Source: Bacteroidia bacterium
GTDB taxonomy: Bacteria; Bacteroidota; Bacteroidia; Bacteroidales; GWF2-35-48
Direction: 5' to 3'
NCBI GenBank assembly: GCA_016212695.1
Contig: JACREX010000048.1
Span: forward strand, 5,984 to 69,983
Length of the DNA: 64,000 bases
Under the pieces are notes generated by a model, which worked only from the letters and a program-made list of their open reading frames with translations, was not told where the DNA came from and made no database searches. The position numbers and the translations under genes are program-made. Numbering within the stretch: the first letter of the stretch is position 1; the number at the start of each line of letters is the position of its first letter. Of this stretch, positions 13,229 to 33,972 are shown piece by piece.

Positions 13229-13242
13229 TTTTTTTGAATCCG

Positions 13243-13250
13243 CAAAATTA
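13243..13250 (-). promoter_or_regulatory. Bacteroidota -7 promoter box (TAATTTTG on the minus strand) upstream of uvrA
   Basis: Plus-strand CAAAATTA is TAATTTTG on the minus strand and matches the TAnnTTTG consensus. It lies about 15 nt upstream of the uvrA ATG. Confidence 0.4.
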
Positions 13251-13424
13251 GAGAAATTTTTTCTTTTTATTTTGTTGCCGAGCCTTTTTATCTGCTTAAT
13301 TTTTCAAATAGGTAAAATATTGTTTTATACTTCAACTATTCAGATTTGCTTTTTCTTGCAAACCTGAATGCTCAGCATAACTGAATCTAAACATTTTTGC
13401 ATTTGCAAACCTGCAAAGATTCAG

Positions 13425-13432
13425 TATATTTG
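13425..13432 (+). promoter_or_regulatory. Bacteroidota -7 promoter box (TATATTTG) upstream of the methyltransferase gene
   Basis: Matches TAnnTTTG. It lies 13 nt upstream of the ATG at 13445, which supports that start over the listed 13397. Confidence 0.4.
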
Positions 13433-13444
13433 CGCAAAATTAAC

Positions 13445-14176
13445 ATGGCAATGAATTTTATAAAGAAGGTCATTAAATCCATACTCTGGATACTTCATGC
13501 CGATATAACTAAAAACCAGAAGTATGACCGGCTTACCTATAACATCATGAAAAAAGTTATTAAACCGGGTTCAAACTGTATTGATATTGGTTGTCATAAA
13601 GGAGAGATGCTCGACCTGATGCTTAAATTTTCTCCGCAGGGAATGCATTATGCTTTTGAGCCCATACCAGAAATGTTTCATGCCCTGGTAGAAAAATATT
13701 CAAAAACCAATTGCAGGATTTTCAAGATTGGCCTCAGTGATTCCAAGGGAGAGGCAGATTTTCATTATGTTGTAAATGCCCCTGCTTACAGCGGTTTTAG
13801 AAAACGCAGGTATGCTGTTAAAAAAGTTGAAATTTCAAAAATCATTGTGAAAAAAGACAGGTTAGATAATATTTTACCTAAAGATTTAAAAATTTCGTTT
13901 GTAAAAATTGATGTTGAAGGAGCCGAACTGGAAGTATTAAAAGGAGGTATTGAAACCATCAGAAGATGCCGGCCTGTGATTATTTTCGAGCATGGCCTTG
14001 GCGCATCCGATCATTACGGCACTACGCCGGAAGATATTTACAATCTTTTTACGAACGGCTGCAATATGAAAGTATCGCTGATGGACAGGTGGCTGAATAA
14101 TCAGGATTCTCTCACCAAACAGGAATTTTCAGAACAATTCGGCAAGGGAATTAATTATTATTTTATTGCTTATTAA
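13445..14176 (+). CDS. FkbM-family SAM-dependent methyltransferase
   Basis: DIGCHKGE SAM-binding loop and the family-typical VKIDVEGAELEVLKG motif. Start placed at ATG 13445 (MAMNFIKK..) downstream of the promoter box. Confidence 0.8.
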   Translation: MAMNFIKKVIKSILWILHADITKNQKYDRLTYNIMKKVIKPGSNCIDIGCHKGEMLDLMLKFSPQGMHYAFEPIPEMFHALVEKYSKTNCRIFKIGLSDSKGEADFHYVVNAPAYSGFRKRRYAVKKVEISKIIVKKDRLDNILPKDLKISFVKIDVEGAELEVLKGGIETIRRCRPVIIFEHGLGASDHYGTTPEDIYNLFTNGCNMKVSLMDRWLNNQDSLTKQEFSEQFGKGINYYFIAY

Positions 14177-14255
14177 ACAAAGGAGCCGTCAGTCATCCGT
14201 CATCGGTCATCAATCAATAGTCGGTAAATTTATTTTTTCAATAAGATATTTTTCC

Positions 14256-14263
14256 TATTTTTG
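14256..14263 (+). promoter_or_regulatory. Bacteroidota -7 promoter box (TATTTTTG)
   Basis: Matches TAnnTTTG, 20 nt upstream of the ATG at 14284. Confidence 0.4.
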
Positions 14264-14283
14264 AGGCCTTTAATTAAAAAGAG

Positions 14284-15294
14284 ATGGGAGATAAAACAGA
14301 TCAGGAATATAATTTCAACACAAATGATTTATTAATTTATATTAATAAAAACAAACAGCCGCTTTTCATTATTACGGTTGCCGCTTTTGTAATCTCAACA
14401 GTGGTATCTCTTCTCCTTACACCCCAATATAAATCCACCGCCATTATTTTTCCGACAGCCACTACGTCTATTTCAAATTCTTTACTCAGCTTGAATTTAC
14501 CCAAGAAAGAAATATTAAATTTCGGGAAGGAAGAGGAAGTGGAACAGATGCTGCAGGTATTGCAATCGGATGAGATCGAAAATAGGATCGTCCGGAAATA
14601 TGACCTTATGAGGCATTATAAGATAACATCCAGATATCCACGCACTGCATTAGATGAAGAATATAAAGACAATATTACATTTATCAGAACGCCTTATTTA
14701 TCCATTGAGATTGAAGTTTACGACCGCGATCCGCAAACTGCAGCCGATATTGCAAACGACATTGCCGCCTTAGTGGATACTACGATTAATAATATGCTTA
14801 AAGAACGCGCCCAGAAAGCATTCATGCTGGTTGAAAAAGAGTATTTTTCTTTAAAAGCCCGTAAACAGGCATTGGAGGATTCATTAAAGAGGATCCAACA
14901 AAAAGGGATATCGCATTACGAATATCAGTCGCAGGCGTTAAACGAAGCGTTGGGAAAGGCCATTGCCGATGGAAAAACGAACGGCGCCGAACAGATTGAC
15001 AAACGGCTAAAAATACTCGCAGAATATGGAGCCGCGTATGTTTCTATCAGGGATTTATTAGAAAAAGAAACAGAAAAGCAGGCAAACTTAGAATCAAAAT
15101 TTTCTGAAGCCAAAGTGGACGCAGAGCAGAATTTACCTCATAAATTTGTTGTAAACAAAGCGATAAAAGCCGAGAAGAGCAGTTACCCGATCGAATGGCT
15201 GATTATTTGTATAAGTACGGTCTCTGCCTTTTTACTTGGATTTCTGATTTTAATACTGTTCGACAAAGTAAAAAAAAAACGCTCGTTGAATTAA
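14284..15294 (+). CDS. Polysaccharide chain-length-determinant (Wzz/GumC-like) protein
   Basis: Bitopic topology: TM near the N-terminus (LFIITVAAFVISTVVSLLL) and at the C-terminus (WLIICISTVSAFLLGFLILILF). Coiled-coil-rich middle region. Paralogous to the next ORF. Confidence 0.55.
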   Translation: MGDKTDQEYNFNTNDLLIYINKNKQPLFIITVAAFVISTVVSLLLTPQYKSTAIIFPTATTSISNSLLSLNLPKKEILNFGKEEEVEQMLQVLQSDEIENRIVRKYDLMRHYKITSRYPRTALDEEYKDNITFIRTPYLSIEIEVYDRDPQTAADIANDIAALVDTTINNMLKERAQKAFMLVEKEYFSLKARKQALEDSLKRIQQKGISHYEYQSQALNEALGKAIADGKTNGAEQIDKRLKILAEYGAAYVSIRDLLEKETEKQANLESKFSEAKVDAEQNLPHKFVVNKAIKAEKSSYPIEWLIICISTVSAFLLGFLILILFDKVKKKRSLN

Positions 15295-15347
15295 AAACCA
15301 TTTCCATCAGGGTTGAAGAGTCATTTAATAATTTTAATTACGATAAT

Positions 15348-16292
15348 ATGGAAGCATTTTTTAACAATAAGAGTATTTTCATGATAATGAATAAATGGAA
15401 AGCTCACCTTATAATTGTTGCCGTTGCAGCGATTCTTTTAAGCGCCATAGTGTCTTTTCTGATTAAACCTAAATTCAGGTCGTTTGCATACCTATACCCG
15501 ATAAATCTTCCAACCCTTTCTGAAGAGTCCAAGACCGAGCAGATGCTTCAGATCATCCAATCCATGGATATAAAGAAAAAATTATATAAAGCGCTAAACC
15601 TTGGAAAGCACTATGAACTGGATTCAACGTCAAAATATTATTTTTCATATTTGAATGATGAATTTGAAAACAATGTTTCTTTTACAAAGACTGAATTTGA
15701 AGGTGTGGGCGTTGAGGTGTATGATACGGACCCCTATACGGCATGCAATATCATTGATTCAATTATAAAGTTTTATAACGATAAAGTGGAAGCATTGCAT
15801 AAAAAGAAAAATTATGAAATGGTCTTTATAAAAGGTAAAGAATTGAAGAGAAAAAGAACAGAAATTGACTCGCTGGAACGGCTTCAGCGCGATCTCAGGA
15901 TAAAATACGGAGTTATTGATTTCGACGCCCAGGCAAAGGAACTCACGCGCGGGTATATGAATATGCTTATGGTTGGCAAGAAGGGAGGAGAAACAGGCAG
16001 AGAGGTTGATACGCTGATGAGAAATTTAAAGGAAAAGGGCGGCGATCTTTTAAGTTTGCGGTCGGTTATCTGGGCCGCTTATGACCAGTTACGTGTCATA
16101 AAAGACGAATATGATAAAAATTTTACGGAAGTTCAGAAAAAAATTACCTATTCTTTGATCGTCAGCACGCCTTATCCTGCAGATAAAAAATCATATCCCA
16201 TCCGGTGGCTCATTGTTGTAGGGTCAACCCTTGGGGCGCTTATCATTGCATTTATTGCTATTGCTTTTATAGAAAACCGTAAGAAAAACTAA
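15348..16292 (+). CDS. Polysaccharide chain-length-determinant-like protein (paralog of 14284..15294)
   Basis: Same N- and C-terminal TM layout. Shared C-terminal motif (KSYPIRWLIVVGSTLGA vs SSYPIEWLIICISTVSA). Start moved to ATG 15348 (MEAFFNNK..) to remove the 100-nt overlap of the listed 15195 start. Confidence 0.55.
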   Translation: MEAFFNNKSIFMIMNKWKAHLIIVAVAAILLSAIVSFLIKPKFRSFAYLYPINLPTLSEESKTEQMLQIIQSMDIKKKLYKALNLGKHYELDSTSKYYFSYLNDEFENNVSFTKTEFEGVGVEVYDTDPYTACNIIDSIIKFYNDKVEALHKKKNYEMVFIKGKELKRKRTEIDSLERLQRDLRIKYGVIDFDAQAKELTRGYMNMLMVGKKGGETGREVDTLMRNLKEKGGDLLSLRSVIWAAYDQLRVIKDEYDKNFTEVQKKITYSLIVSTPYPADKKSYPIRWLIVVGSTLGALIIAFIAIAFIENRKKN

Positions 16293-16306
16293 TCCGGATA
16301 CCATAA

Positions 16307-17773
16307 ATGGTTCCTAAAAATCTTTTATTAACCCTCCAGGATTTTAAGAAAGAAAAATGGTTTTACATCATTTCTGCCGCATTCATTATTATTAATATCA
16401 TAATGATGGCGCAGGCAAACTACTATTTCAACCTTGTTCCGTTTGCGCTGCTGATAATTCTTTATACAATATTTGCATTAGATAAACTCATATTTTTAAT
16501 TGTATTCTTTACACCCCTTTCTATTCCACTGAGAGAATTTTTACCACACACTTCCGTTGACATGAGCTTGCCGACAGAGCCTCTTTTATTTGGCGTAATG
16601 CTGTTGTTTTTATTTAAACTTTTAGTGGAGAAAAATTTTGATAAAAAAATACTGAAACATCCCGTATCCATTGTGATTTATCTGAATCTGACCTGGATAT
16701 TTATTACCAGCCTTACAAGCACCATGCCCTTAGTTTCTTTCAAGTTCTTTATTGCGAGATGCTGGTTTGTTGTGGTTTTCTACTTAATGGCTACATTGGT
16801 TTTTAAGAAATATAACTTTATTAAAACATATTTTTGGTGTTACATTATACCGATGATTTTTGTTATCGGATTCACGTTGTACAGATTATCCGGTTATGGT
16901 TTTTTTGACGAAAAAGCAGCTCACGAAGTGATGAATCCGATCTATAACGATCATACTTCATATGCGGCTGTGCTCGCTATGCTATGCCCGGTTCTTTTCG
17001 GTTTACTGTTTTACTCCGGATACCCCGTATATAAAAAAATAATTTCTTTTGCCGTGCTGGTAATATTTATTATTGCAATAATATTTTCTTATACGCGCGC
17101 ATCCTGGCTCAGCATGGCTGCTGCTTTGGCTTTTTGGATACTGTTAATGCTGAAAATAAAACTAAAGACTATATTTATATCCGCATTTATACTTATCGCC
17201 CTGTTTTTTGCTTTTAAAACCGAAATCGTAATGCGGCTCGAAAAAAACAGGCAGGATTCATCAACCAATTTAAAGGAGCATATTCAATCAATCTCCAATG
17301 TTACTTCAGATGCGTCGAATGTTGAGCGGTTAAACCGGTGGAGTTGCGCTATCAGGATGTTTGAGGCAAAACCGGTCTTCGGATGGGGGCCGGGAACTTA
17401 TATGTTCAAATATGCCCCATTCCAGTTGTCTTATGAAAAAACGATTATCAGCACAAATGCAGGTAACCGGGGGAACGCCCACAGTGAATATTTAGGCCCC
17501 TTATCCGAGTCAGGCCTGTTGGGAATGGTCACGTTTACATTAATTGTTTTATTTACAATTTATACAGGGGCTAAAGTATATCGCAATGCAATCAATAAAA
17601 AAATCAAGCTAATGGCTCTTATTTTAAATTTAAGCTTGGTTACTTATTATGTCCACGGTATCCTGAACAACTTCCTTGATACCGATAAAGCTTCGGCTTT
17701 GTTCTGGGGATTTACAGCAATGATAGTAGCGCTGGATATTTATCATAATAAATTATCAGAAACAGCAGCGTAG
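16307..17773 (+). CDS. O-antigen ligase/polymerase-like (Wzy_C family) membrane protein
   Basis: About 10-12 TM helices. Motif SYTRASWLSM followed by a large loop (NRWSCAIRMFEAKPVFGWGPGTY..HSEYLGPLSESGLLG), typical of O-antigen ligase-like proteins. Confidence 0.7.
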   Translation: MVPKNLLLTLQDFKKEKWFYIISAAFIIINIIMMAQANYYFNLVPFALLIILYTIFALDKLIFLIVFFTPLSIPLREFLPHTSVDMSLPTEPLLFGVMLLFLFKLLVEKNFDKKILKHPVSIVIYLNLTWIFITSLTSTMPLVSFKFFIARCWFVVVFYLMATLVFKKYNFIKTYFWCYIIPMIFVIGFTLYRLSGYGFFDEKAAHEVMNPIYNDHTSYAAVLAMLCPVLFGLLFYSGYPVYKKIISFAVLVIFIIAIIFSYTRASWLSMAAALAFWILLMLKIKLKTIFISAFILIALFFAFKTEIVMRLEKNRQDSSTNLKEHIQSISNVTSDASNVERLNRWSCAIRMFEAKPVFGWGPGTYMFKYAPFQLSYEKTIISTNAGNRGNAHSEYLGPLSESGLLGMVTFTLIVLFTIYTGAKVYRNAINKKIKLMALILNLSLVTYYVHGILNNFLDTDKASALFWGFTAMIVALDIYHNKLSETAA

Positions 17774-18203: not shown

Positions 18204-21200
18204 TTATTCAATCAAAATAAAAGCCGCCCAAAAGTAAGGATCATACTTCTTTCTCATCTCCATTTGTGTTTCATTAAATGATTTTCGAATGTCTTTTAAC
18301 AGTAACAACTTTTCATAAAATCGTATCATGAATTCCGAGGTTTCTTTGTCAGGAACCTGCCATAAACTCATTACTATAAAATTTACTCCAGCTATTTTGA
18401 ATGCTCGCTGCAGGCCATACACACCCTCGCTGCCCTTGATATCGCCAAGGCCGGTTTCGCAGGCTGACATGACCAGAACCCGGGTATTGGGAAGATTCAT
18501 ATTCGATACTTCGTAAGCTGTAAGAACCCCATCTTCGCCTTCAATGGTTGTTTTAGTCCACACATCATTGGCCTTAGCCAGAACCAATCCGGAACGCATC
18601 AACGGGTTTGCACTGTTTACAAAATTTTCTAATCCAAAACCGCTATTGCCTCCGCGAAAAACAACATCATTTTTAACTGATTTTTTATCCATATCTTCTT
18701 TCAGCCCTTTTGGGTCCGGGAAAAAAAAGCCATGCGTTGCAATATGAATTATCTGGGGTGAATTTTTTCCATTTAATGATTTAAAATTTTCTTCGCTGGC
18801 AAGTAATCCTTCGTATTCGTTAGGTTTTATTTTATTCTTAATAAAAGAATCGGCTATTTTATTTGCTTCCTGCCTGCTGCCTTCAAGATATTTCCATATC
18901 TCAGGCCCGGAAGATTCTGTGCTGAACCGTGCGCCGCCAAAAATACATACTTTTATATCCTTACCGGCTAAATCATGGTTGCCTTTTTCAGTGATTGCAG
19001 AGGTTGATGAAACGGCATTCAATATATATTTTTCTGACAAATATTTGTTTTCTTTTGTCTTTATGGCTGCAAAAGAAATTTTATGCAGTAAACCGGAGGG
19101 AGAATAATAAATCGTTTTTATAACTGCCGGTAATGAATCTAAATTTTTCCAGATGATGTCATACAACTTGTTGTTTTTAGCATTCACGGTTCCATAAATA
19201 TTTGTGATATAATCGAGATTATTTCCGCCATACACACCTATCAGGTTTTCAAGTTCTTTTGCCTCAAAAAGCGGGATCATTTCAGGAGATTTACTTTCAG
19301 GCAAAATTACGAGTGCGCAATAATTGTCGCTGTAGGTATTATTTTTCTCAAGCCTTTTAAAATGTGTAAATTCAATAGCAGCTTCATTGGGTTTTATTTG
19401 TTTTTTTATATCAGTCCAGTCCTGTTTAAAAAGCTCAACATCATTGCTAAGGTCATTTGATTTTGTGACCAGTTCCTTTTCCAGCATATTGGCTTTTTCC
19501 TCCATAGTTTCTATACTCCGGTCACTGTCTTTTGCAGTAGATGTATATAATTTTGCCAACTGTTGCTTTGTACCAATCCACTCATTATATTTGCTGATCA
19601 TTTCCTTGTCATTGCTATTCAGAATCGTATTTTTTATTTTACCGGATGTCCGCAACAGAATGCCTTTGTTTATCAATTCGTTTTTGTAAACCAGAGCGGT
19701 AACAGACGGATTATTTTTTTTGCTTTTCATGGCAAAGGAATTTAGCATGTCATTGTAGTGTGATATTGTTTTTAAATAATCTGATTTTTCTTCTTCAGAT
19801 AAAAAAGAGAAGTTGTTTTTTATGAGTTCATGATTTAACTGCATAGCCCGGGTATAATACTTTTCTGCATCGGTAAATTTACCGGTACCTTCGTAAATAT
19901 AGGCAAGACTTGACATCACATCGGAGCAAACCGGGTTGCTTTCTCCAAAAACAGATTGCTTTAATTTCAACGATTCTAAAGCGTATTGTTCTGCTTTATC
20001 ATATTTGGATAAACCGGTATAGAGCAGCGCCAGGTTATGATAACCGACAGCCAGATCAGAGTGGTTCTCTCCAAATATTTTCTTTTCAATTTCAATTGTT
20101 TTTAAATACAAAGGTTCAGCATTAACGAATTGCCCTGTGTTACGGTATAATTCAGCCAGGTTGCTCAGGTGCGTAATGTAATCGGGATGATTCACGCCAT
20201 GTATTACGCTATCAATTTTTAATGCTCTTGTAAAATAACCTGCGGCTTTATCTGTGAATTCTGCAGCGTCTTTATCATTGGCAGAACCAATCGCTTTTGC
20301 CAGGAATAAAGCGCCAAGATTACTCAGCGTTGTTGTATAATTTGAATTTTTCTCACCATAAATTTTTTCATATTTTGTCAGGGCTTCTGTATAATTTTTT
20401 TCCGCCTTACTATAATTCCCGGTTTCATAATAAAAGACACCCAGGTTTAATACAGTGGTTACATAATTGGGATGTTCCATACCTAATTTTTCCTTTGTAA
20501 TACGAACCGATTCCAGTAAATATTCTTCTGCCTGCTTGTTATTACCTTTTTTAATCATCGTATTGGCCAGGGCGTTTAGCATATTTACATTATCCGGATG
20601 CTCTTTGCCGAATGAGGTATATTGGATTTCCAGCGCTTTTTTAAGTATATCTTCTGATTTTTTATAATCGCCGGATTCATAATAAAACAAACCCAGGTTA
20701 TTCAAAAAGGTGGCATATTCAGGATGCATGTCGCCATAGATTTTTTCAAAAATAATCTGACATTTTCTATAGGTTTCACCAGCCATCTGGTAATTTCCGA
20801 GAGTGCTGTAAAGCCCCGCCAGACTGTTAAGGGTATTTGCAAAGGAGGCATGAAATTCGCCCACAGTCTTTATTTGAATTTCCAGCGCTTTTTTAAGTAA
20901 TTTTTCAGCATTCCCGAAGTCACCTCTGGTGATTTTCACATTAGCCAGATTGAATATCGTTACAGCATATTCAGCGTGATTCTCACCCTGAATTTCTTTC
21001 CGGAGCTCGGCTGCATTTTCAAATTGTGCTTCAGCAGTTTTATAATCTCCGGTCTGTTCAAAAAGCAAAGCGAGATTATTTAAGGATGTTACATAAGCAT
21101 CGTATTTTTCACCATAGAGATTTTTTTGAATATCCATAGCCCTTTTCGTTAGTTCAATGGCCTCTTTATATTTCGCGTTGGAGGAATAAACGGATGCCAT

Positions 21201-22280
21201 ATTGCTTAGTGCAATGGCATAATTCGGATTCGTTTCTCCATAAATGTTTTTATAAATGGAAATAGTCTGGTCAAATAATTTTTCTGCTTCTTTGTATTTA
21301 CCCATATTATCATATAATACGGCCAAATTCGAAAGAGTAAGGGCATAAAAACCGCTCTCTTTTTTGTACACTTTTTCTTTAATTTTCAATGATTTCAGAT
21401 ACAACTCCTCGGCCTTCGCATTCCTACCCTGCTTTTCGTAAGTAACCGCTATATTGTTAAGTGCAGTGGCATAATCAGCGCTTATTTCTCCAAACAGTTT
21501 TCTGCAAGCCTCTGCAAAATCAAGATACACATTTTCTGATTTTTCATACAGCCCAGCCTTTATATAAAGTTCTCCAAGTGTGTTTAAAGATGTTAGATAC
21601 TCCTTGCTTGATTTACCATACGTATTGCCAATAATTTCAGCGGCATTTTTATAAAAAGGCTCAGCTTTTTCAAATTTTCCGTTGGCATAATAAAACGGTG
21701 CAATTATATTAACCATGGCCTGATACAGAGAATCAGTTTCTTTATACTCACTTTTCACTACGTTAAAAACGTCTTCGTAGATTTCTTCTGCTTTTTTATA
21801 ACTGCCGGCCATGTTGTAGATATTCGCCTGCTGAATGGCCGTATTAACAAAATCCATACTGTTTTTCCCCTGGTCTTTCTCAATAAAATCCAGCACTTCT
21901 TTCATCAACGGATAGGCTATGGAGTATTTTTTAATATAGGTGTAATTGACAGCAAGGTTGTAGGTAACCATTATATAATTGTAGTTATTTTTACCCGAAA
22001 GCGATTTATATAATTCTTGTGTTTCTTTGTATGTTTCAACCGCTTTATCGTAATCCTGAATACTGTAATAAGCAAAGGCGATGTATCTCAAAACACTTAT
22101 ATAATTAGTATCTTTTTTACCTATAAGTGTTAAAGTTTTATTCCCAGTTTCAATGGCTTTTTTAAATTCCTGCGATTGAAATTGTTTTAAAAAAGTTTGA
22201 TAAGAACTTTTCCATTCTTGAGAAAAACAAACATGAAAAGTGAATAAGGTAAAAATAGTAATGAAGGTGGTTTTCTTCAT
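18204..22280 (-). CDS. Secreted TPR-repeat protein with a C-terminal CHAT (caspase-fold) protease domain
   Basis: Signal peptide MKKTTFITIFTLFTFHVCFSQ. About 17-20 TPR units (recurrent ..A..YN/LA..Y...G.Y.KAE..Y pattern). C-terminal CHAT dyad motifs IIHIATHGFF (His) and LVMSACETGLG (Cys). Confidence 0.85.
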   Translation of the reverse strand: MKKTTFITIFTLFTFHVCFSQEWKSSYQTFLKQFQSQEFKKAIETGNKTLTLIGKKDTNYISVLRYIAFAYYSIQDYDKAVETYKETQELYKSLSGKNNYNYIMVTYNLAVNYTYIKKYSIAYPLMKEVLDFIEKDQGKNSMDFVNTAIQQANIYNMAGSYKKAEEIYEDVFNVVKSEYKETDSLYQAMVNIIAPFYYANGKFEKAEPFYKNAAEIIGNTYGKSSKEYLTSLNTLGELYIKAGLYEKSENVYLDFAEACRKLFGEISADYATALNNIAVTYEKQGRNAKAEELYLKSLKIKEKVYKKESGFYALTLSNLAVLYDNMGKYKEAEKLFDQTISIYKNIYGETNPNYAIALSNMASVYSSNAKYKEAIELTKRAMDIQKNLYGEKYDAYVTSLNNLALLFEQTGDYKTAEAQFENAAELRKEIQGENHAEYAVTIFNLANVKITRGDFGNAEKLLKKALEIQIKTVGEFHASFANTLNSLAGLYSTLGNYQMAGETYRKCQIIFEKIYGDMHPEYATFLNNLGLFYYESGDYKKSEDILKKALEIQYTSFGKEHPDNVNMLNALANTMIKKGNNKQAEEYLLESVRITKEKLGMEHPNYVTTVLNLGVFYYETGNYSKAEKNYTEALTKYEKIYGEKNSNYTTTLSNLGALFLAKAIGSANDKDAAEFTDKAAGYFTRALKIDSVIHGVNHPDYITHLSNLAELYRNTGQFVNAEPLYLKTIEIEKKIFGENHSDLAVGYHNLALLYTGLSKYDKAEQYALESLKLKQSVFGESNPVCSDVMSSLAYIYEGTGKFTDAEKYYTRAMQLNHELIKNNFSFLSEEEKSDYLKTISHYNDMLNSFAMKSKKNNPSVTALVYKNELINKGILLRTSGKIKNTILNSNDKEMISKYNEWIGTKQQLAKLYTSTAKDSDRSIETMEEKANMLEKELVTKSNDLSNDVELFKQDWTDIKKQIKPNEAAIEFTHFKRLEKNNTYSDNYCALVILPESKSPEMIPLFEAKELENLIGVYGGNNLDYITNIYGTVNAKNNKLYDIIWKNLDSLPAVIKTIYYSPSGLLHKISFAAIKTKENKYLSEKYILNAVSSTSAITEKGNHDLAGKDIKVCIFGGARFSTESSGPEIWKYLEGSRQEANKIADSFIKNKIKPNEYEGLLASEENFKSLNGKNSPQIIHIATHGFFFPDPKGLKEDMDKKSVKNDVVFRGGNSGFGLENFVNSANPLMRSGLVLAKANDVWTKTTIEGEDGVLTAYEVSNMNLPNTRVLVMSACETGLGDIKGSEGVYGLQRAFKIAGVNFIVMSLWQVPDKETSEFMIRFYEKLLLLKDIRKSFNETQMEMRKKYDPYFWAAFILIE

Positions 22281-22367
22281 TTTTTTAAATTCATGGTTTC
22301 ACTAAAAAATAAAATGGATATTGCTTTCCACATCTATAACTAATACAAACTCGAAACTTTAAACATA

Positions 22368-25300
22368 TTACCACACCCTGAAATCAAACTCCAGATTCTC
22401 TTTCCTGCTGGTCGGATTTTGTTTGCCATTTGTAAGCTTTTGTACGCAGTCTGAAATATAATCTCTGAGTTCAGAAACTGTGATTTGCTTGTCTTTGTTT
22501 TTATCTGCATGACCGGTTTTCAGGCCTTCAAGTAAGGCATAAGTAAACACACCATTCTTCCAGTTTTTGGATTCAAAAGCAAATTCTTTACCGCCTGCTG
22601 AAGAGATTACCATAGCGCCTGATCCCCTGCGTAAGTCTGCAAACAAGGTTTGCATGAGTTCAAAAGAATTTTGCAGACCCAAAGAATTTTCTTTATTCTT
22701 CAGCCCGTTGAATCCCCTGAATTTTACATCACCGATACTTGTTTCTTTCACTGCAGTCAGCTCCACCTCATCTTTATCCACTTCTCCGGAATGACAGGCA
22801 TCAATAAAAATTAATTTCTTTAAGGCAGGAATACCATCCACCAAATTTTCTAGTTCATCATACGACATACCACGTAGAGATGGATGGTTAAAATCCACAT
22901 CAGTAGTAGCAAAATAATAGTCGAGTTTTTCATCTAACAAACCGTGGCTGGCTATAAATACCAACACCTGGTCGTCGGGTTTGCTTTGTTTTAAAAATTC
23001 TTTGGCTTTTAATATGTTCTCCTTGGTTGCATTTTTATTTGTGATCAGGAGCGTGAAAGTTTCGCCGGGGCTTTGTTTTTTTTCTTTGAATATTGATGAA
23101 AAATCTATCGCATCTTTGGCTGCATAGGTGAGATTAAACTGCTTGTCATGGTATTCCGATACACCAATGGATACAATGTACAAATCGGATTTGAATGCTT
23201 CTTTGGGTTCATATTTTATTTCTAAGTTTTCACGCAGACTTTCCACCCCTTTTTCATTTAAACATGAAATTTCGATTTTGTTTTTCCCATTCATTAAATC
23301 CACCTCTAATTGTTTTGAAAATTGCTTTGTGTTTTCATCTCTAAGGTTAATCCCGTTTACTCCAAATACAGGAACATCATTGATCCAGACGTTTATGCGG
23401 TCGAGTTTGAATTCCGTATCTTTTGCAAGAATTTTTAAAAGTAGTTTTTTATCACGGGTGGTCAATGGAATATTGTTTTTATTCTCTAAAACGATTTCAG
23501 GAATATGAAAAACATGAGAAAACATATTTTCTGAAAAATTTAATTTCTTAAGCCTTTTCAGATAAGCCATGCGGTAGGAATTGATGACGGCAGAATCTAC
23601 ATAACTTAATCTTTTCAGAATTATGTCAGGCCGGTTGTACTGCATATCATACTGATCGAACAGGAAAACTTTGTTGTCTTTCACAAAATGAACTGCATCG
23701 GTTCCTTTTTTTGTGGACATATAATAACCATCGGGCGTATAAACAATATATTCGTTACCGGGTCCGGAAAGAGAAATAAATGTCGCTACTTCGTTTCCGT
23801 TTTTGGCATCATAGAATTTAATCTGTCCGTCGTCGCTACCCGAAATGATGTATTTTCCATCGGCGCTGCAGCACACATCGTGAACCGAAGTAACATTTCC
23901 TTTGAGAATAAAATGCTCTTTGCCTGTGAGAATATCATATACTCCGATAGCTGTTCCATAGGTGCTCACCACTACAAATTTCCCATCGGCAGTGATACAC
24001 ATTGACGTAACAGAATTGAGTTGTTTTGGATAAGAAAGCAGTTCCTTTTTATTTTCAAAATCCCACAATTTGATTGTATAATCACTGCTGCCTGTGATCA
24101 GGTATTTCCCATCTTTACTGAAAAGCGCCTTATGTATACTCCTCTGCTTTGTTTTGATTTTACAGTTCCGTTTGTTATTAATAATATCCCAGTATGTTAA
24201 AATACCATCGTTCCCGCCAGCCGCTAAATATTTTGAATCGGGACTAAAACAAACTGTATATACGGAGGCTCTGTCAATTTTTTTAAGTAAAATTTGCTTC
24301 CCATTTTCCATGTTAATAAGAGTGACACCCGATTCAGCCACTGCCAGCCATTTTCCGTCAGGGCTAAAGCACAGGTCGTTAATCATCCACGATGTTTTAA
24401 GGAGTTCTTTCAGTGTCTCGCCTGAAGCAATATCTACCAGCACAATGGAACTTTTTTTCCGGTCTTCACAGGCAGCATATTTTCCATCAGGTCTGATGGA
24501 GAAGCGACAGGAATATTTCATTTTACTGATCACCTTCGGTTTCATCACTTCCCACATTTGCAGGTTTAAAAAGCCATAGCCATCTAATAAATATTTGTTG
24601 TCAGGTGTTATAGCCACGCTTAGAACGGCGGCAGAACTACCTTTAAATTTTCCCAGGTCTTTTCCTGTACTGACTTCCCAAAAGCGGATTTGTTTGTCCT
24701 GTGCGGTGGTTACAAAATATTTTCCGTCGGGGCTCAGGCAGGTTCCAAAAATATAATCTGTGTGACCGGTAAAAATCTGCTCAATACTGTCGGTGACACA
24801 ATTTTTAAGAATCATGTTACGCGCTTTGTCGTCCTGATATATCAGGCTGCCGCCGCCTTTGGCAAACAACACGGGACCCAGACCGGTAAAAGAGTTCAAT
24901 TCTTTTTGCGAATTAATGTCAATAATTTTGATGACAGGTTTTGCATCGAATTCGTTTTCATAGCTTGCTAATTTTTTACTATCAGGACTGAAATCAATAG
25001 AATTTACGGTGGACAAAAAGAGGTTGAAAATCTTTAATTCTTTTCCAGTTTCGGGATCCCAGAAAACAACGGTTTTATCGCCGCTGCCGCTGGCAAAAAA
25101 ACTGCCGTCGGGACTGAATTTTATTTTAGTCACCCATTGGGTATGTTTGGTCAGAATATATTTTACTTGGTAATTTTTAAGGTCCCAGCAACGGATGGTT
25201 TTATCGGAGCTTCCGCTAACCAATAATGGTTTATCAGGACTATAAGCGAGTGTGGTGACAATATTTGTATGACCCTTTAACAGGGCAATTTTATCTCCTG

Positions 25301-25628
25301 TAAAGTAATCAACAATTTTAATATGGGTATTGAAAGTGCTGCCGGAATCCTGCGCCACAAAAGCAACCTGTTTACCATCGGGGCTAAAACATACTGGATC
25401 GCGGCCATCGAAAGATTTAAGCTCCCTGCCGGTAGGGACGTCCCATATAATAATATTATTGCCTCCTGCTGTTGCTACATATTTCCCATCAGTACTGTAT
25501 GCTGAATAGTTAGCGGCAAATATCTGCCCGTGGCCTTTTTGTATGCGCAGTTCGGGTTGCTGGGAAAAAGAATTTATGCAAATATTGAATAAAATAACGG
25601 GTAGCCAGGTTTTTAAAATTGCAGCCAT
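22368..25628 (-). CDS. Secreted WD40-repeat protein with a C-terminal caspase (peptidase C14) domain
   Basis: Signal peptide MAAILKTWLPVILFNICINSFSQ. Many WD40 blades (IIIWDVPTG, IRCWDLKN, VVFWDPETG, IKLWDFEN..). C-terminal caspase dyad motifs VLVFIASHGLL (His) and LIFIDACHSGE (Cys). Confidence 0.85.
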   Translation of the reverse strand: MAAILKTWLPVILFNICINSFSQQPELRIQKGHGQIFAANYSAYSTDGKYVATAGGNNIIIWDVPTGRELKSFDGRDPVCFSPDGKQVAFVAQDSGSTFNTHIKIVDYFTGDKIALLKGHTNIVTTLAYSPDKPLLVSGSSDKTIRCWDLKNYQVKYILTKHTQWVTKIKFSPDGSFFASGSGDKTVVFWDPETGKELKIFNLFLSTVNSIDFSPDSKKLASYENEFDAKPVIKIIDINSQKELNSFTGLGPVLFAKGGGSLIYQDDKARNMILKNCVTDSIEQIFTGHTDYIFGTCLSPDGKYFVTTAQDKQIRFWEVSTGKDLGKFKGSSAAVLSVAITPDNKYLLDGYGFLNLQMWEVMKPKVISKMKYSCRFSIRPDGKYAACEDRKKSSIVLVDIASGETLKELLKTSWMINDLCFSPDGKWLAVAESGVTLINMENGKQILLKKIDRASVYTVCFSPDSKYLAAGGNDGILTYWDIINNKRNCKIKTKQRSIHKALFSKDGKYLITGSSDYTIKLWDFENKKELLSYPKQLNSVTSMCITADGKFVVVSTYGTAIGVYDILTGKEHFILKGNVTSVHDVCCSADGKYIISGSDDGQIKFYDAKNGNEVATFISLSGPGNEYIVYTPDGYYMSTKKGTDAVHFVKDNKVFLFDQYDMQYNRPDIILKRLSYVDSAVINSYRMAYLKRLKKLNFSENMFSHVFHIPEIVLENKNNIPLTTRDKKLLLKILAKDTEFKLDRINVWINDVPVFGVNGINLRDENTKQFSKQLEVDLMNGKNKIEISCLNEKGVESLRENLEIKYEPKEAFKSDLYIVSIGVSEYHDKQFNLTYAAKDAIDFSSIFKEKKQSPGETFTLLITNKNATKENILKAKEFLKQSKPDDQVLVFIASHGLLDEKLDYYFATTDVDFNHPSLRGMSYDELENLVDGIPALKKLIFIDACHSGEVDKDEVELTAVKETSIGDVKFRGFNGLKNKENSLGLQNSFELMQTLFADLRRGSGAMVISSAGGKEFAFESKNWKNGVFTYALLEGLKTGHADKNKDKQITVSELRDYISDCVQKLTNGKQNPTSRKENLEFDFRVW

Positions 25629-25644
25629 AACAATTGTCGGTTTA

Positions 25645-28017
25645 TCAAAATTGAAACCGTACTAAAAAAATATAAAATAATCCCAACTGGTAATCGTAAT
25701 TCACCTTGTTTTCTTTGGGATCATACGACTCAAGGAAAAAATTGCGGTGATTGGTGATATTCTGAACGTCAATACCGAATTCCATATTGAATTTCGGAAA
25801 ATTGAATTTCATTCCCGCTCTTACATCTATGCGGAAATAATCAGGATATCTTTTTTCATAGGCACGCGCAAAATCGTAAACTGCCGCATGGGCGACACGT
25901 GATAATGCCGTGTCAATCGGGATATATCTTTTTCCGCCGGCAGACACTATTTTCAGATCCAAAGACAGGGAATTATATTTCCCGATTTTGAATTTATATC
26001 CGCCCAACGCATTCACTACATAATTCCCGTTGAAAAGCGTATTTCTTTCCACGCTGTCGCTGCCCGTGTATTTTGATTCAAAAAGCGATGCTGTGAAAAG
26101 ATAATAATAATTTTTTGTCAGGAAATGTTCCACTGTCAGCTCGATGCCGTAATTTTTTCCTGCCCCGTTGTTTACAAGGCTGTCGATCCTACTCTGGTAA
26201 AATTCGCTTCCGAAATTTATGATTGAAAATGTGGAACTTTTTCTTTCGACGGGAATCTTCAATAACTGCTGATAATACACTTCTGTTTTCAGCCGCATGT
26301 TTTCGGTAATGAGAAAATCATACCCTAAAACAACCTGGTTGCTTCTGGTGAAAGTAAGGTTTTTATTGGTTTGTATCCTGGAATTATCCGGTAGTTTTGT
26401 CTCAACAAAATAAAACAGCATAGGCTGCAACTGGCTGTGGGCGCCGAATCCGATGCTGAGCGAATGCATGGCATTGAGCTTCCATTTGAAATTAAAACGG
26501 GGTTCCACCGCAAAATCGTTGTTCAGCGTAAAATGCTGGTAATGCAAACCTCCATTGATAATGTAATTATCTGTGATTTTGTGTTGCCACTGGATGTGCG
26601 ACTGGATGAGCGTAATATCTTTTCCGCGGGTGTCGGTCTGCTTGAAGAACTGATATGCGGGCGTGAGGATGCTGTCCGTATAATAGGCTGATATTTCATC
26701 AACTGTAAAACCTGCAGAAAAATAATTTTTTGAATTAATTTTTTTTGAATACTGCTCCGACAACGTGTATTTGATCTCATGGCTTTCGTTACCGTAATAC
26801 TGGAAAGACGGTTTATCTGTAAATGCAGAATCAGCCTTGATTTTTGTACGGCTACCGGACAACGCTATTCCTGAAACTAAGCGGGCTGAATTTGTGGCTT
26901 TCGGGTTTAGAAAAATCGAATGGGTGATACCGATAACCCCCATATCCGTACTGAAACGGATGTCCATATTGGGATGGCCGAAGGTCCAGTCCGAAGGCCT
27001 CTGTTCTTTCGATAAAATGTCAGTATAACTCATGCCCCCGACGCCGAAAACCGAAAAATTCCCTAATTTTCCTGCCGGAAGATCCGTTTTAAAAGACAAA
27101 TCCTGATACTGTGGCGTGGCCGACACGCCGAAACTGATTCCCATGGCGCGGAAAAATTCCAGTGTGGAATACCGGTAGCTGGTAAGGTAAGAGCCTTTAT
27201 AGTTTTTAGAAAAAGGCCCTTCTGCGCCAAATTCAAAACCATTAAGGCCTACCTGTGCAATGTATTCCCGTTTTTCATTGTTGCCGCTGCGCATATGAAG
27301 ATCGAATACGCCTGCCAGCGCATTGCCATATTCTGCAGGAAAAGCGCCGGTAAAAAAATCGGAGTTATCGAGAAGATTATTGTTTAAAATGCTGATGGGT
27401 CCTCCGGTTGTTCCCAGCGTGCCAAAGTGATTCGGATTCGGAATGTTGATGCCATCGAGCCTGTAAAGCACTCCCGACGGCGAATTGCCGCGGATGATAA
27501 TATCGTTTCTCTGGTCGCCTGCCGCCATTACCCCTGCATAATTGCAAACCATGCGCGCAGGATCGAACCATGTGCCTGCATAGCGTTCCGTCTCTTCAAC
27601 GGTGAACGAACGCGCGCTCACGCTGGCCATTTTATTCAGCGGCTGATCTTTCCGGATGCCCGCTTTCACCACTACTTCGTCGGTCATTATTACTTTTTCT
27701 TCCATCTCTGTTTTCAGCACAAGTTCTTTGCCGGAACTGAGTGTAACATTCGGTAGTATGATCGTATGATAACCGATAAAACTGAAACTGATATCGTATT
27801 TCGCTACCGGAACATCCTGTATTTTGAATTCTCCGTATTCGTTGGTAACAGCGCCTGTGAGCGGATTGGAATTCAGCAGCACCACATTCACTCCGGCCAG
27901 AGGTTGCCTGGAATTTTTATCAAATACCTGTCCGCGGATAGTCTGCCGAAAAGCGTTCTGAGTAAAACCCAAAGGCGCAAATAAAATAATAGATATTAAA
28001 ATTAAAACGGCTTTCAT
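25645..28017 (-). CDS. TonB-dependent outer-membrane receptor with an N-terminal carboxypeptidase-regulatory-like domain
   Basis: Signal peptide. IRGQVFDKNSRQPLAGVNVVL (CarbopepD_reg-like). Plug region (DIIIRGNSPSGVLYRLDGINIPNPNHF). Long beta-barrel ending in a terminal aromatic (..LVRFQF). Confidence 0.85.
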   Translation of the reverse strand: MKAVLILISIILFAPLGFTQNAFRQTIRGQVFDKNSRQPLAGVNVVLLNSNPLTGAVTNEYGEFKIQDVPVAKYDISFSFIGYHTIILPNVTLSSGKELVLKTEMEEKVIMTDEVVVKAGIRKDQPLNKMASVSARSFTVEETERYAGTWFDPARMVCNYAGVMAAGDQRNDIIIRGNSPSGVLYRLDGINIPNPNHFGTLGTTGGPISILNNNLLDNSDFFTGAFPAEYGNALAGVFDLHMRSGNNEKREYIAQVGLNGFEFGAEGPFSKNYKGSYLTSYRYSTLEFFRAMGISFGVSATPQYQDLSFKTDLPAGKLGNFSVFGVGGMSYTDILSKEQRPSDWTFGHPNMDIRFSTDMGVIGITHSIFLNPKATNSARLVSGIALSGSRTKIKADSAFTDKPSFQYYGNESHEIKYTLSEQYSKKINSKNYFSAGFTVDEISAYYTDSILTPAYQFFKQTDTRGKDITLIQSHIQWQHKITDNYIINGGLHYQHFTLNNDFAVEPRFNFKWKLNAMHSLSIGFGAHSQLQPMLFYFVETKLPDNSRIQTNKNLTFTRSNQVVLGYDFLITENMRLKTEVYYQQLLKIPVERKSSTFSIINFGSEFYQSRIDSLVNNGAGKNYGIELTVEHFLTKNYYYLFTASLFESKYTGSDSVERNTLFNGNYVVNALGGYKFKIGKYNSLSLDLKIVSAGGKRYIPIDTALSRVAHAAVYDFARAYEKRYPDYFRIDVRAGMKFNFPKFNMEFGIDVQNITNHRNFFLESYDPKENKVNYDYQLGLFYIFLVRFQF

Positions 28018-28033
28018 TTATAAAATTAATATG

Positions 28034-28041
28034 CAAATTTA
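28034..28041 (-). promoter_or_regulatory. Bacteroidota -7 promoter box (TAAATTTG on the minus strand) upstream of the TonB-dependent receptor gene
   Basis: Plus-strand CAAATTTA is TAAATTTG on the minus strand and matches TAnnTTTG. It lies 17 nt upstream of the ATG at 28017. Confidence 0.4.
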
Positions 28042-28136: not shown

Positions 28137-29471
28137 TTATTTTTTCATAAACGGCATATTGCCCATCATTCTTGAAATATTTTTTCCGCTGGTGACCATC
28201 CGCATCATCCTACGGGTTTCATCAAATTGTTTTATGAGCCGGTTTACTTCCTGGATATCCGTTCCGCTTCCTAATGCAATCCTTTTTCTGCGGCTGCCGT
28301 TAAGCAGGGCAGGGTCTTCGCGTTCAGAAGGCGTCATCGAAAAAATAATTGCTTCAATATTTTTAAACGCATTATCGTCAATGTCTATATTCTTCAATGC
28401 TTTGCCAACGCCGGGTATCATAGAGGCAAGATCTTTCAGGTTTCCCATTTTTTTTATCTGCTGAATCTGGGAAAGAAAATCGTTAAAATTAAACTGGTTT
28501 TTTGCAATTTTTTTCTGCAGTTTCCTGGACTCTTCAAGGTTGAATTGTTCCTGCGCCCGTTCAACAAGGGAAACAATATCGCCCATGCCCAGAATACGGT
28601 CGGCCATACGTTCGGGATAGAAAATATCCAATGCGTCTAATTTTTCGCCCGTACCCACAAATTTGATGGGTTTATCTACAACAGATCGGATTGACAATGC
28701 GGCGCCGCCCCGCGTATCGCCGTCTAATTTTGTAAGAACCACGCCGTCGAAATTCAGGCGGTCGTTAAATTCTTTTGCAGTATTCACGGCATCCTGCCCG
28801 GTCATGGAATCAACCACAAACAAAATCTCGCCGGGATTAACGGCTTTTTTAATGGCTGCGATCTCGTTCATCATTTCTTCATCAACAGCAAGACGGCCGG
28901 CTGTGTCAATGATTAACAGGTCGAAACCGTTGAGCCTTGCATGTTTTATGGAATTTTCCGCTATACGAACCGGGTTGTTATTTCCTTCTTCGGTGTACAC
29001 AGGGATATCAATCTGCCTGCCTAATATTTTTAGCTGTTCGATAGCCGCAGGGCGGTACACGTCGCAGGCAGTGAGTAAAGGGCGTTTTCCGCGTTTATTC
29101 TTTAAAAAATTTGCCAGCTTCCCTGAAAATGTTGTCTTCCCTGAACCCTGCAAGCCTGCCATTAAAATAACGGCAGGACTCCCCTTGATATTAATCTCCT
29201 GCTTCTGGCCGCCCATCAGTTCAATCAGTTCATCATGGACTATCTTCACCATCATTTCTCCAGGCTTCACAACCTTGAGAACATCCATGCCCAGCGCTTT
29301 TTTCTTTACATTATCTGTGAATTGTTTGGCTATTTTGAAATTAACGTCGGCATCCAGCAATGCCCGCCTCACCTCTTTCAGCGTTTCGGCAATATTGATC
29401 TCTGTGATCCTGCCTTCGCCTTTTAAAAGTTTGAACGATTTTTCTAATTTTTCACTTAAACTTTCAAACAT
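28137..29471 (-). CDS. ffh: Signal recognition particle protein
   Basis: 444 aa. GTPase motifs GLQGSGKTT, DTAGR, TKLDGD. Met-rich M domain at the C-terminus. Confidence 0.97.
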   Translation of the reverse strand: MFESLSEKLEKSFKLLKGEGRITEINIAETLKEVRRALLDADVNFKIAKQFTDNVKKKALGMDVLKVVKPGEMMVKIVHDELIELMGGQKQEINIKGSPAVILMAGLQGSGKTTFSGKLANFLKNKRGKRPLLTACDVYRPAAIEQLKILGRQIDIPVYTEEGNNNPVRIAENSIKHARLNGFDLLIIDTAGRLAVDEEMMNEIAAIKKAVNPGEILFVVDSMTGQDAVNTAKEFNDRLNFDGVVLTKLDGDTRGGAALSIRSVVDKPIKFVGTGEKLDALDIFYPERMADRILGMGDIVSLVERAQEQFNLEESRKLQKKIAKNQFNFNDFLSQIQQIKKMGNLKDLASMIPGVGKALKNIDIDDNAFKNIEAIIFSMTPSEREDPALLNGSRRKRIALGSGTDIQEVNRLIKQFDETRRMMRMVTSGKNISRMMGNMPFMKK

Positions 29472-32789: not shown

Positions 32790-32822
32790 AAGAAGGGTGG
32801 AATTTTCATCCTTCTTTTTTTA
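32790..32822. terminator. Candidate bidirectional rho-independent terminator between convergent genes
   Basis: AAGAAGG (32790-32796) pairs with CCTTCTT (32810-32816). An A-run lies on the left and a T-run on the right. The hairpin overlaps the stop codon of the minus-strand gene. Confidence 0.45.
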
Positions 32823-33843
32823 TGTAAAGATTTAAAATCCTGTTATAAATAATCACTAAAACACAAGTGCAAACAGTTATGAAGATAAACCATAAGGGTA
32901 GTTTGGCAAGGCTCTGTGTTTTATATATTGATGTTGCTATATTACCAATCAGTATCCACTGAATAATATAAAATACCGTTACATTTTTTCCAACCCATTT
33001 TAAAAAGTTTAATACAGGATTCTTTTCTTTTCTGTCCCGGACAAATGAAAAAAGCGATACCCAGAAAACAAGGAATAACAGGGTCCAGAAATAATATTTC
33101 AATCCGTGATGATAATAGTGTTTCAGATTGTGTGTGATTTCTGAAGCATACTTTATCGTAATCAAAATAAAAATACCGGTGGCAATAGTTATTATCAACC
33201 GAAAAATTTCACTGAGTTGTTCCACTTTATAATTATTGGAAAAAATCCTGAAACCTGCGCCCAGTAAGGGGTAGGCAATCCACGGGAATACCGGGAAATA
33301 AGACCATCTGTAGCCGCCACCGAAAAAGGCTGTAATAAATTTTAAAGGATTATTTGCGGTAAGATATTGATTAAAATAGGGAGTTAACAGTATTGCCAAT
33401 ACGGATAACAGGATGTAGGGTAAATAAAAATTTGAAAATGTTCTTCGTATGAATGTTATAATGATAACGCTGATACCTGATAAAATCAGGATATCCGCTC
33501 CAAAAATAAATTCAAGCGGATTAAGCCGGGCATTTTCAAAAAAGATATGAATCAGTACATGAAAATTCAAACCGATATTCAGCAGCAAACCGGTGAGTAT
33601 TAATTTTAATCCGCGGAATACGGATTCCCTGAATGATTTATTCGACGATATTACAAAATATCCTAATATAGCCATAAAAACTGGCGCTACGGGTGGCCCG
33701 CCCATAAAAAGAGAAACTTTACCAAGGATGCTGTCAAAGATACCCTGCTGGGCAAAAAGCTCCATGATATGCACCTGGATCATGAGCAATACGGCAACCC
33801 CCTTGAGAATATCTGGAGTAATAAACCGGGATGCTTTATTCAT
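32806..33843 (-). CDS. Polytopic membrane protein, DUF1624/heparan-alpha-glucosaminide N-acetyltransferase-like acyltransferase
   Basis: About 10 TM helices. N-terminal ITPDILKGVAVLLMIQVH resembles the conserved R/D..G.a...M...H start of this family. Confidence 0.5.
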   Translation of the reverse strand: MNKASRFITPDILKGVAVLLMIQVHIMELFAQQGIFDSILGKVSLFMGGPPVAPVFMAILGYFVISSNKSFRESVFRGLKLILTGLLLNIGLNFHVLIHIFFENARLNPLEFIFGADILILSGISVIIITFIRRTFSNFYLPYILLSVLAILLTPYFNQYLTANNPLKFITAFFGGGYRWSYFPVFPWIAYPLLGAGFRIFSNNYKVEQLSEIFRLIITIATGIFILITIKYASEITHNLKHYYHHGLKYYFWTLLFLVFWVSLFSFVRDRKEKNPVLNFLKWVGKNVTVFYIIQWILIGNIATSIYKTQSLAKLPLWFIFITVCTCVLVIIYNRILNLYIKKEG

Positions 33844-33972
33844 AAAGAAAAATTAGAATTCTAAAAGGACAAGATCAGGGCTACTGTTCAACAACGGGTT
33901 TAGAATTTAGAATTTTGGTATTTGATTAGGATTAGGATTAAGTTTTTAGTTCATTGTTTCTTCCACTTCGCA

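Follow-up and report, generated by a model that had tools for sequence, protein, structure and literature searches.

Two predicted exported caspase-fold proteases with large sensor arrays beside a TonB-dependent-receptor-like gene in a Bacteroidia genome

A 64-kb stretch of a Bacteroidia metagenome-assembled genome (assembly GCA_016212695.1, contig JACREX010000048.1, positions 5,984 to 69,983; hereafter the window) carries four minus-strand genes in a row, encoding ffh, a TonB-dependent-receptor-like protein, a WD40-caspase and a TPR-CHAT protein (Table 1). The genes surrounding the three last-named are ffh, yidC, an O-antigen-ligase-like gene, a methyltransferase gene and uvrA. A first-pass annotation, made from the sequence alone, had described the receptor, caspase and CHAT genes as an apparently co-transcribed envelope module. 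Their coordinates and strand were exactly as claimed there when checked against the listing of open reading frames (ORFs), and the gaps, when re-measured, were again 16 nt (receptor/caspase) and 87 nt (caspase/CHAT); the ffh/receptor gap is 119 nt. The reading that we consider probable is a different one: two separate Sec-exported, sensor-fused, caspase-fold cysteine proteases, each from a very large family centred on the Bacteroidota, lie beside a core receptor gene by local order only.

Table 1. Features of the receptor, caspase and CHAT genes and of the sequence preceding them; positions are those of the window.
Feature	Position	Strand	Basis or remark
ffh	28137-29471	-	gene preceding the receptor gene
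TAAATTTG, candidate Bacteroidota -7-type promoter box	28034-28041	-	16 nt ahead of the start codon (ATG) of the receptor gene
TonB-dependent-receptor-like outer-membrane protein, 790 aa	25645-28017	-	signal peptide, CarboxypepD_reg, plug, putative barrel
Receptor signal peptide, aa 1-19, cleavage predicted between GFT and Q	27961-28017	-	passes strict heuristic; small residue, then Gln
TonB-box-like DEVVVKA, aa 113-119	27661-27681	-	motif location, directly after the CarboxypepD_reg domain
WD40-caspase, 1086 aa, predicted exported	22368-25628	-	Pfam WD40 and Peptidase_C14
Caspase signal peptide, aa 1-22, cleavage predicted between SFS and QQ	25563-25628	-	register with homologue leaders
WD40 region, aa 23-611, with room for about two beta-propellers; presumed sensor that binds a ligand	23796-25562	-	PF00400
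Conserved helical linker and Ig-like beta-sandwich, aa 612-814, ahead of the caspase domain	23187-23795	-	alignment A1
Caspase (Peptidase_C14) domain, aa 815-1086	22371-23186	-	PF00656, Foldseek
ASHG, aa 893-896, catalytic His895	22941-22952	-	H284/G285 invariant in A1
DACHSG, aa 943-948, catalytic Cys945, Asp943 two residues earlier	22785-22802	-	D332, C334, S336, G337 invariant in A1
DVKFRG, low-confidence p20-p10 linker, candidate autoprocessing site after Arg	22713-22730	-	A1, pLDDT
EF-hand-like loop DKNKDKQITVSE within the caspase domain	22470-22505	-	family consensus DxNKDGxIxVSEL (A1)
TPR-CHAT, 1358 aa, predicted exported	18204-22280	-	Pfam TPR_12 and CHAT
CHAT signal peptide, aa 1-20, cleavage predicted between CFS and QEW	22221-22280	-	leader heuristics, orthologue comparison
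Helical pre-CHAT region and CHAT protease domain, aa 859-1358; Pfam CHAT aa 1037-1357	18207-19706	-	Pfam, Foldseek
ATHG, aa 1181-1184, catalytic His1183	18729-18740	-	T324, H325, G326 invariant in A2
SACETG, aa 1272-1277, catalytic Cys1274	18450-18467	-	S414-G419 invariant in A2

The WD40-caspase is identical to MBI5217768.1 of the NCBI, a 'caspase family protein' from a Bacteroidia metagenome-assembled genome. Pfam assigned it to WD40 (PF00400, E=1.4e-72) and to many further propeller families, and a search with its C-terminal 475 aa matched Peptidase_C14 (PF00656, E=3.4e-15, 56.8 bits against a cut-off of 21.4). The His/Cys dyad is intact, as had been claimed: ASHG and DACHSG are both present, and the catalytic residues fall on invariant columns (H284 and C334) of alignment A1, which holds 24 caspase-family homologues. 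Asp943 we take to be an S1-pocket residue, as in metacaspases. An AlphaFold model of the caspase module, built from the family alignment, had a mean predicted local distance difference test (pLDDT) score of 80.7. Foldseek matched it with probability 1.00 to Geobacter GSU0716 (3BIJ), Arabidopsis metacaspase 9, MALT1 and Trypanosoma brucei MCA2, and a sequence search of solved structures with the family profile returned nothing. The module runs from a helical linker through an Ig-like sandwich, whose strands (residues 100-195 of the modelled fragment) were predicted with pLDDT >90, to a caspase domain carrying an EF-hand-like loop. The loop matched EF-hand_1 of Pfam at E=0.0025, below the cut-off, and suggests that calcium may act through a site other than that of the classical metacaspases. 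The linker within the caspase domain has pLDDT <50 and carries a semi-conserved VxFR, with Arg at the DVKFRG column in 17 of the 24 sequences in A1. The D-x-C-H-S-G motif, together with VxFR in a disordered linker, suggests by analogy with metacaspases that the enzyme may cleave after Arg or Lys and process itself at the linker. The family is very large: clustered at 50 % identity, it has 8,263 representatives with E<=1e-30. The module was C-terminal in 150/150 of the top representatives, in proteins of ∼540-2000 aa.

The TPR-CHAT protein matched TPR_12 (E=3.4e-146, about fifteen units) and CHAT (PF12770, E=1.2e-54). Here too the claim of an intact dyad held: ATHG and SACETG were found, with their His and Cys on invariant columns (H325 and C416) of alignment A2, made from 23 CHAT homologues. 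The AlphaFold model of the CHAT half, again from the family alignment, had a mean pLDDT of 81.5 and matched the TPR-CHAT protein of Craspase (Csx29), DdvA (8ROT) and separase with a Foldseek probability of 1.00. Profile, dyad and fold thus all place the protein in PF12770. As with the caspase, the family profile found nothing among solved structures in a sequence search.

The first-pass annotation had given both proteases Sec signal peptides, and leader-like sequences of the n-h-c type do stand at both N-termini, conserved in position across the two families. By eye, the receptor (MKAVLILISIILFAPLGFT before Q), the caspase (MAAILKTWLPVILFNICINSFS before QQ) and the CHAT protein (MKKTTFITIFTLFTFHVCFS before QEW) each have such a leader ending immediately before Gln and resembling the leaders cut by signal peptidase I. 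So read, all three would fit the Q-rule of the Bacteroidota, whereby substrates of Sec and signal peptidase I have Gln at +1 (PMC5837995). No in-frame start codon was present upstream of the listed starts of the three genes. Among homologues in the fetched loci, a crude leader rule was positive for 60/76 complete caspases and 58/75 complete CHAT proteins; many of the negative ones show a leader after a later Met, and the leaders of complete homologues of both proteases often end before Gln. In the caspase family a conserved QxPELxxQxGH follows directly after the leader, and the window protein matches it (FSQQPELRIQKGHG). The full-length CHAT orthologues of loci L087 (1364 aa) and L089 (1356 aa) have the same leader as the window protein and the same Q[DET]W start. 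Under a strict heuristic the receptor and CHAT leaders passed and that of the caspase failed on hydrophobicity, so that support for the caspase leader comes from homology. As far as sequence can tell, both caspase-fold proteins are very probably exported, and export is very probably a trait of both families. In both, the C-terminus coincides with the conserved end of the catalytic domain; neither had a Pfam match to Por_Secre_tail or another type IX sorting domain, and neither has a lipobox. Since the type IX C-terminal domain and the lipobox are lacking, a soluble periplasmic location is the default expectation, and we regard it as probable for both proteases.

The receptor is 100 % identical to MBI5217769.1, 'TonB-dependent receptor [Bacteroidia bacterium]', again from a Bacteroidia metagenome-assembled genome. 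Pfam matched CarbopepD_reg_2 (E=4.9e-19) and, weakly, Plug (PF07715, 25.9 bits against a cut-off of 23.9); the plug-like stretch at aa 170-250 is strongly conserved in alignment A3 of the receptor family, which has a mean column identity of 62 %. The barrel (PF00593) had no Pfam match in the window copy, and a precomputed match exists for some orthologues; a sequence search of solved structures gave no match to the receptor. DEVVVKA, a candidate TonB box by the established consensus, has the family consensus xEVVVKA, with E114 invariant in A3. The receptor has at least 7,998 homologues, the best 120 of which are mostly ∼770-840 aa long and 49-78 % identical. In three loci (L083-L085; in L083 at ∼10001-12419) from 'Bacteroidetes bacterium RIFOXYA12_FULL_35_11' and related contigs, the orthologue is split over three reading frames, which reflects either pseudogenization or an assembly error that recurs; the family is strongly conserved otherwise.

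The first-pass annotation had itself made the linkage of receptor and proteases depend on synteny in related genomes, and synteny was absent from the loci compared. Searches by tblastn and with a hidden Markov model (HMM) of the receptor family found no receptor homologue within 10 kb of the protease in any of 77 caspase-anchored loci or 80 CHAT-anchored loci (0/157). The caspase-anchored loci came from species-representative genomes, at 44-55 % identity, mostly in the Bacteroidota, with some in Ignavibacteriaceae, Acidobacteriota, Planctomycetota and others; the CHAT-anchored loci came from metagenomes. Applied to all ORFs of 150 aa and longer from the fetched loci, the receptor HMM scored in receptor-anchored loci only; the model is specific to its family and leaves room for unrelated TonB-dependent receptors near the proteases. 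In locus L167, for example, a CarboxypepD_reg/OMP_b-brl_3 gene lies ∼3 kb from the caspase homologue on the opposite strand. Conversely, none of the seven loci around the closest receptor orthologues (73-78 % identity) held a caspase or CHAT gene, and the neighbours in these loci are mutually unrelated and vary from locus to locus.

The composition of the genes agrees with this result. G+C content at third codon positions (GC3) is 0.479 in the receptor gene, matching ffh (0.474) and yidC (0.477); GC3 in the caspase (0.387) and CHAT (0.347) genes resembles that of the accessory genes on their far side. Because no receptor homologue occurs in the protease-anchored loci and the neighbours of the receptor vary, with GC3 in agreement, we conclude that the trio is not a conserved unit and that the adjacency of the receptor is local gene order. 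By the same sequence comparisons the receptor is a highly conserved core gene, and a functional tie to the proteases is not supported.

Transcription was considered separately. The claim that a promoter box precedes the receptor gene only proved correct: TAAATTTG is present, neither internal gap contains TAnnTTTG, and the minus strand has no TAnnTTTG from 24754 to 28033. The motif occurs in the window at chance frequency (82 observed, 80.8 expected from shuffles), so that only the position of this copy speaks for function. A scan for sigma-70-type promoters used a consensus that does not apply to promoters of the Bacteroidota. No terminator-like hairpin was found in the 16-nt or the 87-nt gap, and terminator counts over the scan equalled the shuffle expectation. 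The short gaps without hairpins make co-transcription of the three genes plausible. Read-through from the receptor promoter may reach the caspase and CHAT genes, as an accident of placement rather than through functional coupling. The 64-kb window contains no other caspase or CHAT copies, and no Rfam RNA elements were found in it.

Several results weigh against the reading that we favour. The caspase leader is weak, with one Lys and one Asn inside its hydrophobic stretch as well as its failure under the strict rule. Leader rules of this kind are unspecific: among long ORFs of the same loci the background was 55 % (crude) and 47 % (strict), and the claim of family-wide export therefore rests mainly on visual and positional conservation. 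The searches brought up no close relative with the protease genes (the best caspase homologue is ∼55 % identical), so that the loci compared are not from true sister genomes. Finally, the 16-nt gap and the lack of an internal TAnnTTTG or an internal terminator are compatible with a real operon in this genome.

If two independent exported proteases are indeed encoded here, their action might be as follows. Sec would export each precursor, and signal peptidase I would cut before the Gln at which the leaders end. Both proteases would then probably stay soluble in the periplasm, as the missing type IX domain and lipobox lead one to expect, where the WD40 propellers and the long TPR solenoid would each bind a protein ligand. 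Ligand binding or oligomerization would switch on the His-Cys dyad. Given its metacaspase-type D-x-C-H-S-G, the caspase would probably cut after Arg or Lys; it may also process itself at VxFR and respond to Ca2+ through the EF-hand-like loop. Envelope surveillance or conflict is the role that we consider most probable: foreign or damaged periplasmic proteins would be recognized and cut; regulated processing of the cell's own envelope proteins is the alternative.

Caspase and CHAT might instead act as a pair, without the receptor, either in a two-step periplasmic cascade or as two sensors with one output. A CHAT gene was present in 7/77 caspase-anchored loci (L009, L021, L024, L035, L061, L065 and L012) and a caspase homologue in 3/80 CHAT-anchored loci (L087, L124 and L165); both families also occur together in L166. 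Same-strand adjacent pairs were found in two Ignavibacteriaceae (L009 and L021), in Paludibacter (L024) and in Leeuwenhoekiella (L065). About 4/77 immediate neighbours is some ten times the expectation from 10 CHAT genes per 4000 genes, a gene count that was assumed. A WD40-caspase lies within ∼3 kb of the closest full-length CHAT orthologue found (L087, 54 %), and likewise of the partial copy in L012. Co-location is nevertheless sporadic (∼4-9 % of anchored loci): 70/77 and 77/80 loci have a single family only, and order, orientation and spacing differ between loci. No caspase lies close to the equally long CHAT orthologue in L089. Nor was a conserved small partner gene found beside the CHAT orthologues: the small ORFs of L087, L089 and L012 show no mutual relationship, and the window lacks them. 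Many genomes carry several copies of each family, with tandem caspase paralogues in 14/77 caspase-anchored loci, and chance proximity is not negligible. We consider a functional pair unlikely.

Locus L166 (positions 1-16355; ENA ERZ25039522 contig_30569) has its WD40-caspase homologue in a multi-gene island with a 434-aa CHAT protein, a WD40-GYF protein, an extracytoplasmic function (ECF) sigma factor, a 1180-aa WD40 protein and a zf-HC2 anti-sigma domain fused to a Ser/Thr kinase, an arrangement that recalls the logic of DdvA/DdvS. In L087, two paralogous exported proteins of ∼210 aa (5763-7067), each with a fold like the third domain of GldM, sit between the divergent WD40-caspase and the CHAT orthologue; the window contains no equivalent. 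Large Reg_prop/Y_Y_Y/SpoIIE (PP2C phosphatase) proteins (L087 14541-17849, L168 3535-6861 and L083 5819-9217) adjoin or lie near two CHAT orthologues, and one lies near a receptor orthologue. This family is common in Bacteroidota, and the proximity may be coincidence. The co-located loci suggest, by analogy with the island of Psychroflexus torquis (PMC3914696), that exported caspase-fold proteins may gather in loose islands.

A broader proposal, which we hold to be less likely still than a functional pair, is that the two families constitute a widespread periplasmic pattern-recognition and protease system in the Bacteroidota and neighbouring phyla. Their repeat arrays would detect foreign proteins that reach the envelope, such as effectors of phages, predators or competitors; adjacent members of the two families, those of the window included, would form protease cascades; and an ECF sigma/anti-sigma pair, as in L166, would occasionally provide a transcriptional output.

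Secreted proteases of clan CD, such as the gingipains and C11 enzymes, are well known in Bacteroidota, and the two proteins could in principle be released, through outer-membrane vesicles or an unrecognized route, and degrade or attack prey, algae or competitors. In secreted polymorphic toxins, a caspase-fold domain can indeed be the toxin or the processing domain (PMC3482391), and a role in interaction with algae was suggested for the WD40-metacaspase island of Psychroflexus (PMC3914696). Neither protease, however, has a type IX C-terminal domain or a lipobox, no toxin domain follows the caspase domain, and the huge sensor repeats favour regulated over bulk proteolysis. Release is thus improbable.

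The original proposal joined receptor, caspase and CHAT in one envelope module, with the receptor importing or presenting a ligand that the proteases would sense and cut. The common strand, the two short terminator-free gaps and the TAnnTTTG ahead of the receptor alone speak for it, as does the fact that all three products are predicted to go to the envelope. Against these stand the absence of receptor homologues around the proteases and of proteases around the closest receptor orthologues, the status of the receptor as a conserved core gene with different GC3, and the chance frequency of the promoter motif. For lack of synteny the model is largely refuted, and we give it very little credence; what survives is that both proteases are very probably exported, and what is not supported is their functional tie to the receptor. 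That the leaders are start-codon artefacts and the proteins cytoplasmic, in the manner of caspase and CHAT effectors linked to STAND or CRISPR systems, is hardly credible: the caspase leader is weak, and the caspase and CHAT systems under discussion are mostly cytoplasmic (PMC7159879), but no upstream in-frame start exists, leaders and following residues are conserved in homologues, and neither an NTPase, nor Cas7-11, nor a CRISPR array lies nearby.

As the three-gene module is not a conserved system, that specific finding matters little. Attention is better given to the two protease families, which are very large, have intact dyads and huge sensor arrays, appear from their sequences to be consistently exported, and are functionally uncharacterized. 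To our knowledge, work on caspase-fold sensor proteases has dealt almost wholly with cytoplasmic effectors of death or defence, DdvA being the only characterized periplasmic case. The question of what exported sensor-caspases do in the Bacteroidota envelope is a real one, if not new, and the present locus is no easier a test case than hundreds of others. One tractable member from the Bacteroidota could reveal whether bacteria run periplasmic surveillance of the caspase type.

Elsewhere in the window, a tandem array of ∼26 heptamers (TCGATRT; 33947-34130) lies directly upstream of an Acyl_transf_3 gene (32806-33843, minus strand), and could act by slipped-strand mispairing in the phase variation of an acyltransferase that modifies the surface. 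Four PQQ_2/BamB-like beta-propeller proteins are encoded at 3655-5529 (+), 9034-10299 (+), 47683-49026 (-) and 59851-61758 (+), the last ending in a SPOR peptidoglycan-binding domain. An ORF of 1405 aa that starts with TTG (49127-53344, +) had no Pfam match at E<=0.001, and a single ORF at 37939-40209 (-) combines urea transporter (UT) and Peptidase_M23 domains, an unusual fusion.

Among known systems, the receptor is closest to the TonB-dependent transporters of the Bacteroidota with an N-terminal CarboxypepD_reg domain, sharing with them this domain and a plug signature and carrying the TonB-box-like DEVVVKA. It differs in that the window copy has no Pfam barrel match and no SusD-like partner gene adjoins it. 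For the proteases, several assignments were tried and rejected. The domain scan covered ORFs of 150 aa or more between ∼2.4 and 33.8 kb, with others beyond. A type III-E Craspase was excluded, with no Cas domain in the ORFs scanned, no CRISPR-like repeats or array across the 64 kb and no PADLOC match to Craspase; PADLOC returned generic caspase, HEAT-ARM and TPR matches only, and no defence system. An NTPase of the STAND/NLR-like conflict systems (Kaur et al. 2020) was absent from both proteases and the adjacent genes, and the NCBIfam model 'caspase, EACC1-associated type' scored 81 bits, below its cut-off of 140. Type IX cargo was excluded since Pfam found no C-terminal sorting domain, and a polymorphic toxin with a caspase-like releasing peptidase since the caspase domain is itself C-terminal, in the window protein as in all 150 top representatives.

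The premise of the first-pass annotation that repeat-sensor caspase and CHAT proteins are cytoplasmic is true of most discussed systems (PMC7159879), but was put too strongly. N-terminal helices, possibly signal peptides, were noted on prokaryotic metacaspases in 2012 (Asplund-Samuelsson et al.; PMC3501461), signal-peptide-bearing genes were flagged in the WD40-metacaspase cluster of a flavobacterium in 2014 (PMC3914696), and the structure of the periplasmic TPR-CHAT protein DdvA was published in 2024 (PMC11506125). With the prokaryotic metacaspases or orthocaspases (MEROPS C14), of which WD40 is the commonest partner domain (PMC3501461), the WD40-caspase shares the C14 fold, the His-Cys dyad and the DxCHSG motif. 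Clusters of paralogues in Bacteroidota are shared with the WD40-metacaspase cluster on genomic island 15 of Psychroflexus torquis (PMC3914696). In contrast to these metacaspases, the window family has its caspase domain at the C-terminus, preceded by a conserved helical linker and an Ig-like domain, and this caspase domain contains an EF-hand-like loop. The literature searched contained no experimentally studied member of this family.

The best structural match to the CHAT half was Csx29 of the type III-E Craspase (7Y9X_B, E=2.8e-11), which has the same TPR-plus-CHAT order; Csx29, however, is cytoplasmic and bound to Cas7-11, whereas the window protein has a predicted signal peptide. DdvA, at Foldseek rank 9 (E=6.8e-9), is likewise a TPR-CHAT protein with a conserved His-Cys dyad, lies in the periplasm and has been proposed as a periplasmic protein sensor. 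It differs in having a zinc-binding anti-sigma domain and a membrane helix where the window protein has a leader of the cleavable type, and in its much shorter TPR array. An anti-sigma factor of the DdvA type was rejected for the window protein, whose N-terminus is a 20-aa leader followed by TPRs with no anti-sigma domain; no ECF sigma or Sigma70 gene was found in the ORFs scanned. We conclude that the two proteases are ordinary members of C14 and CHAT, from subfamilies that are annotated but functionally unstudied.

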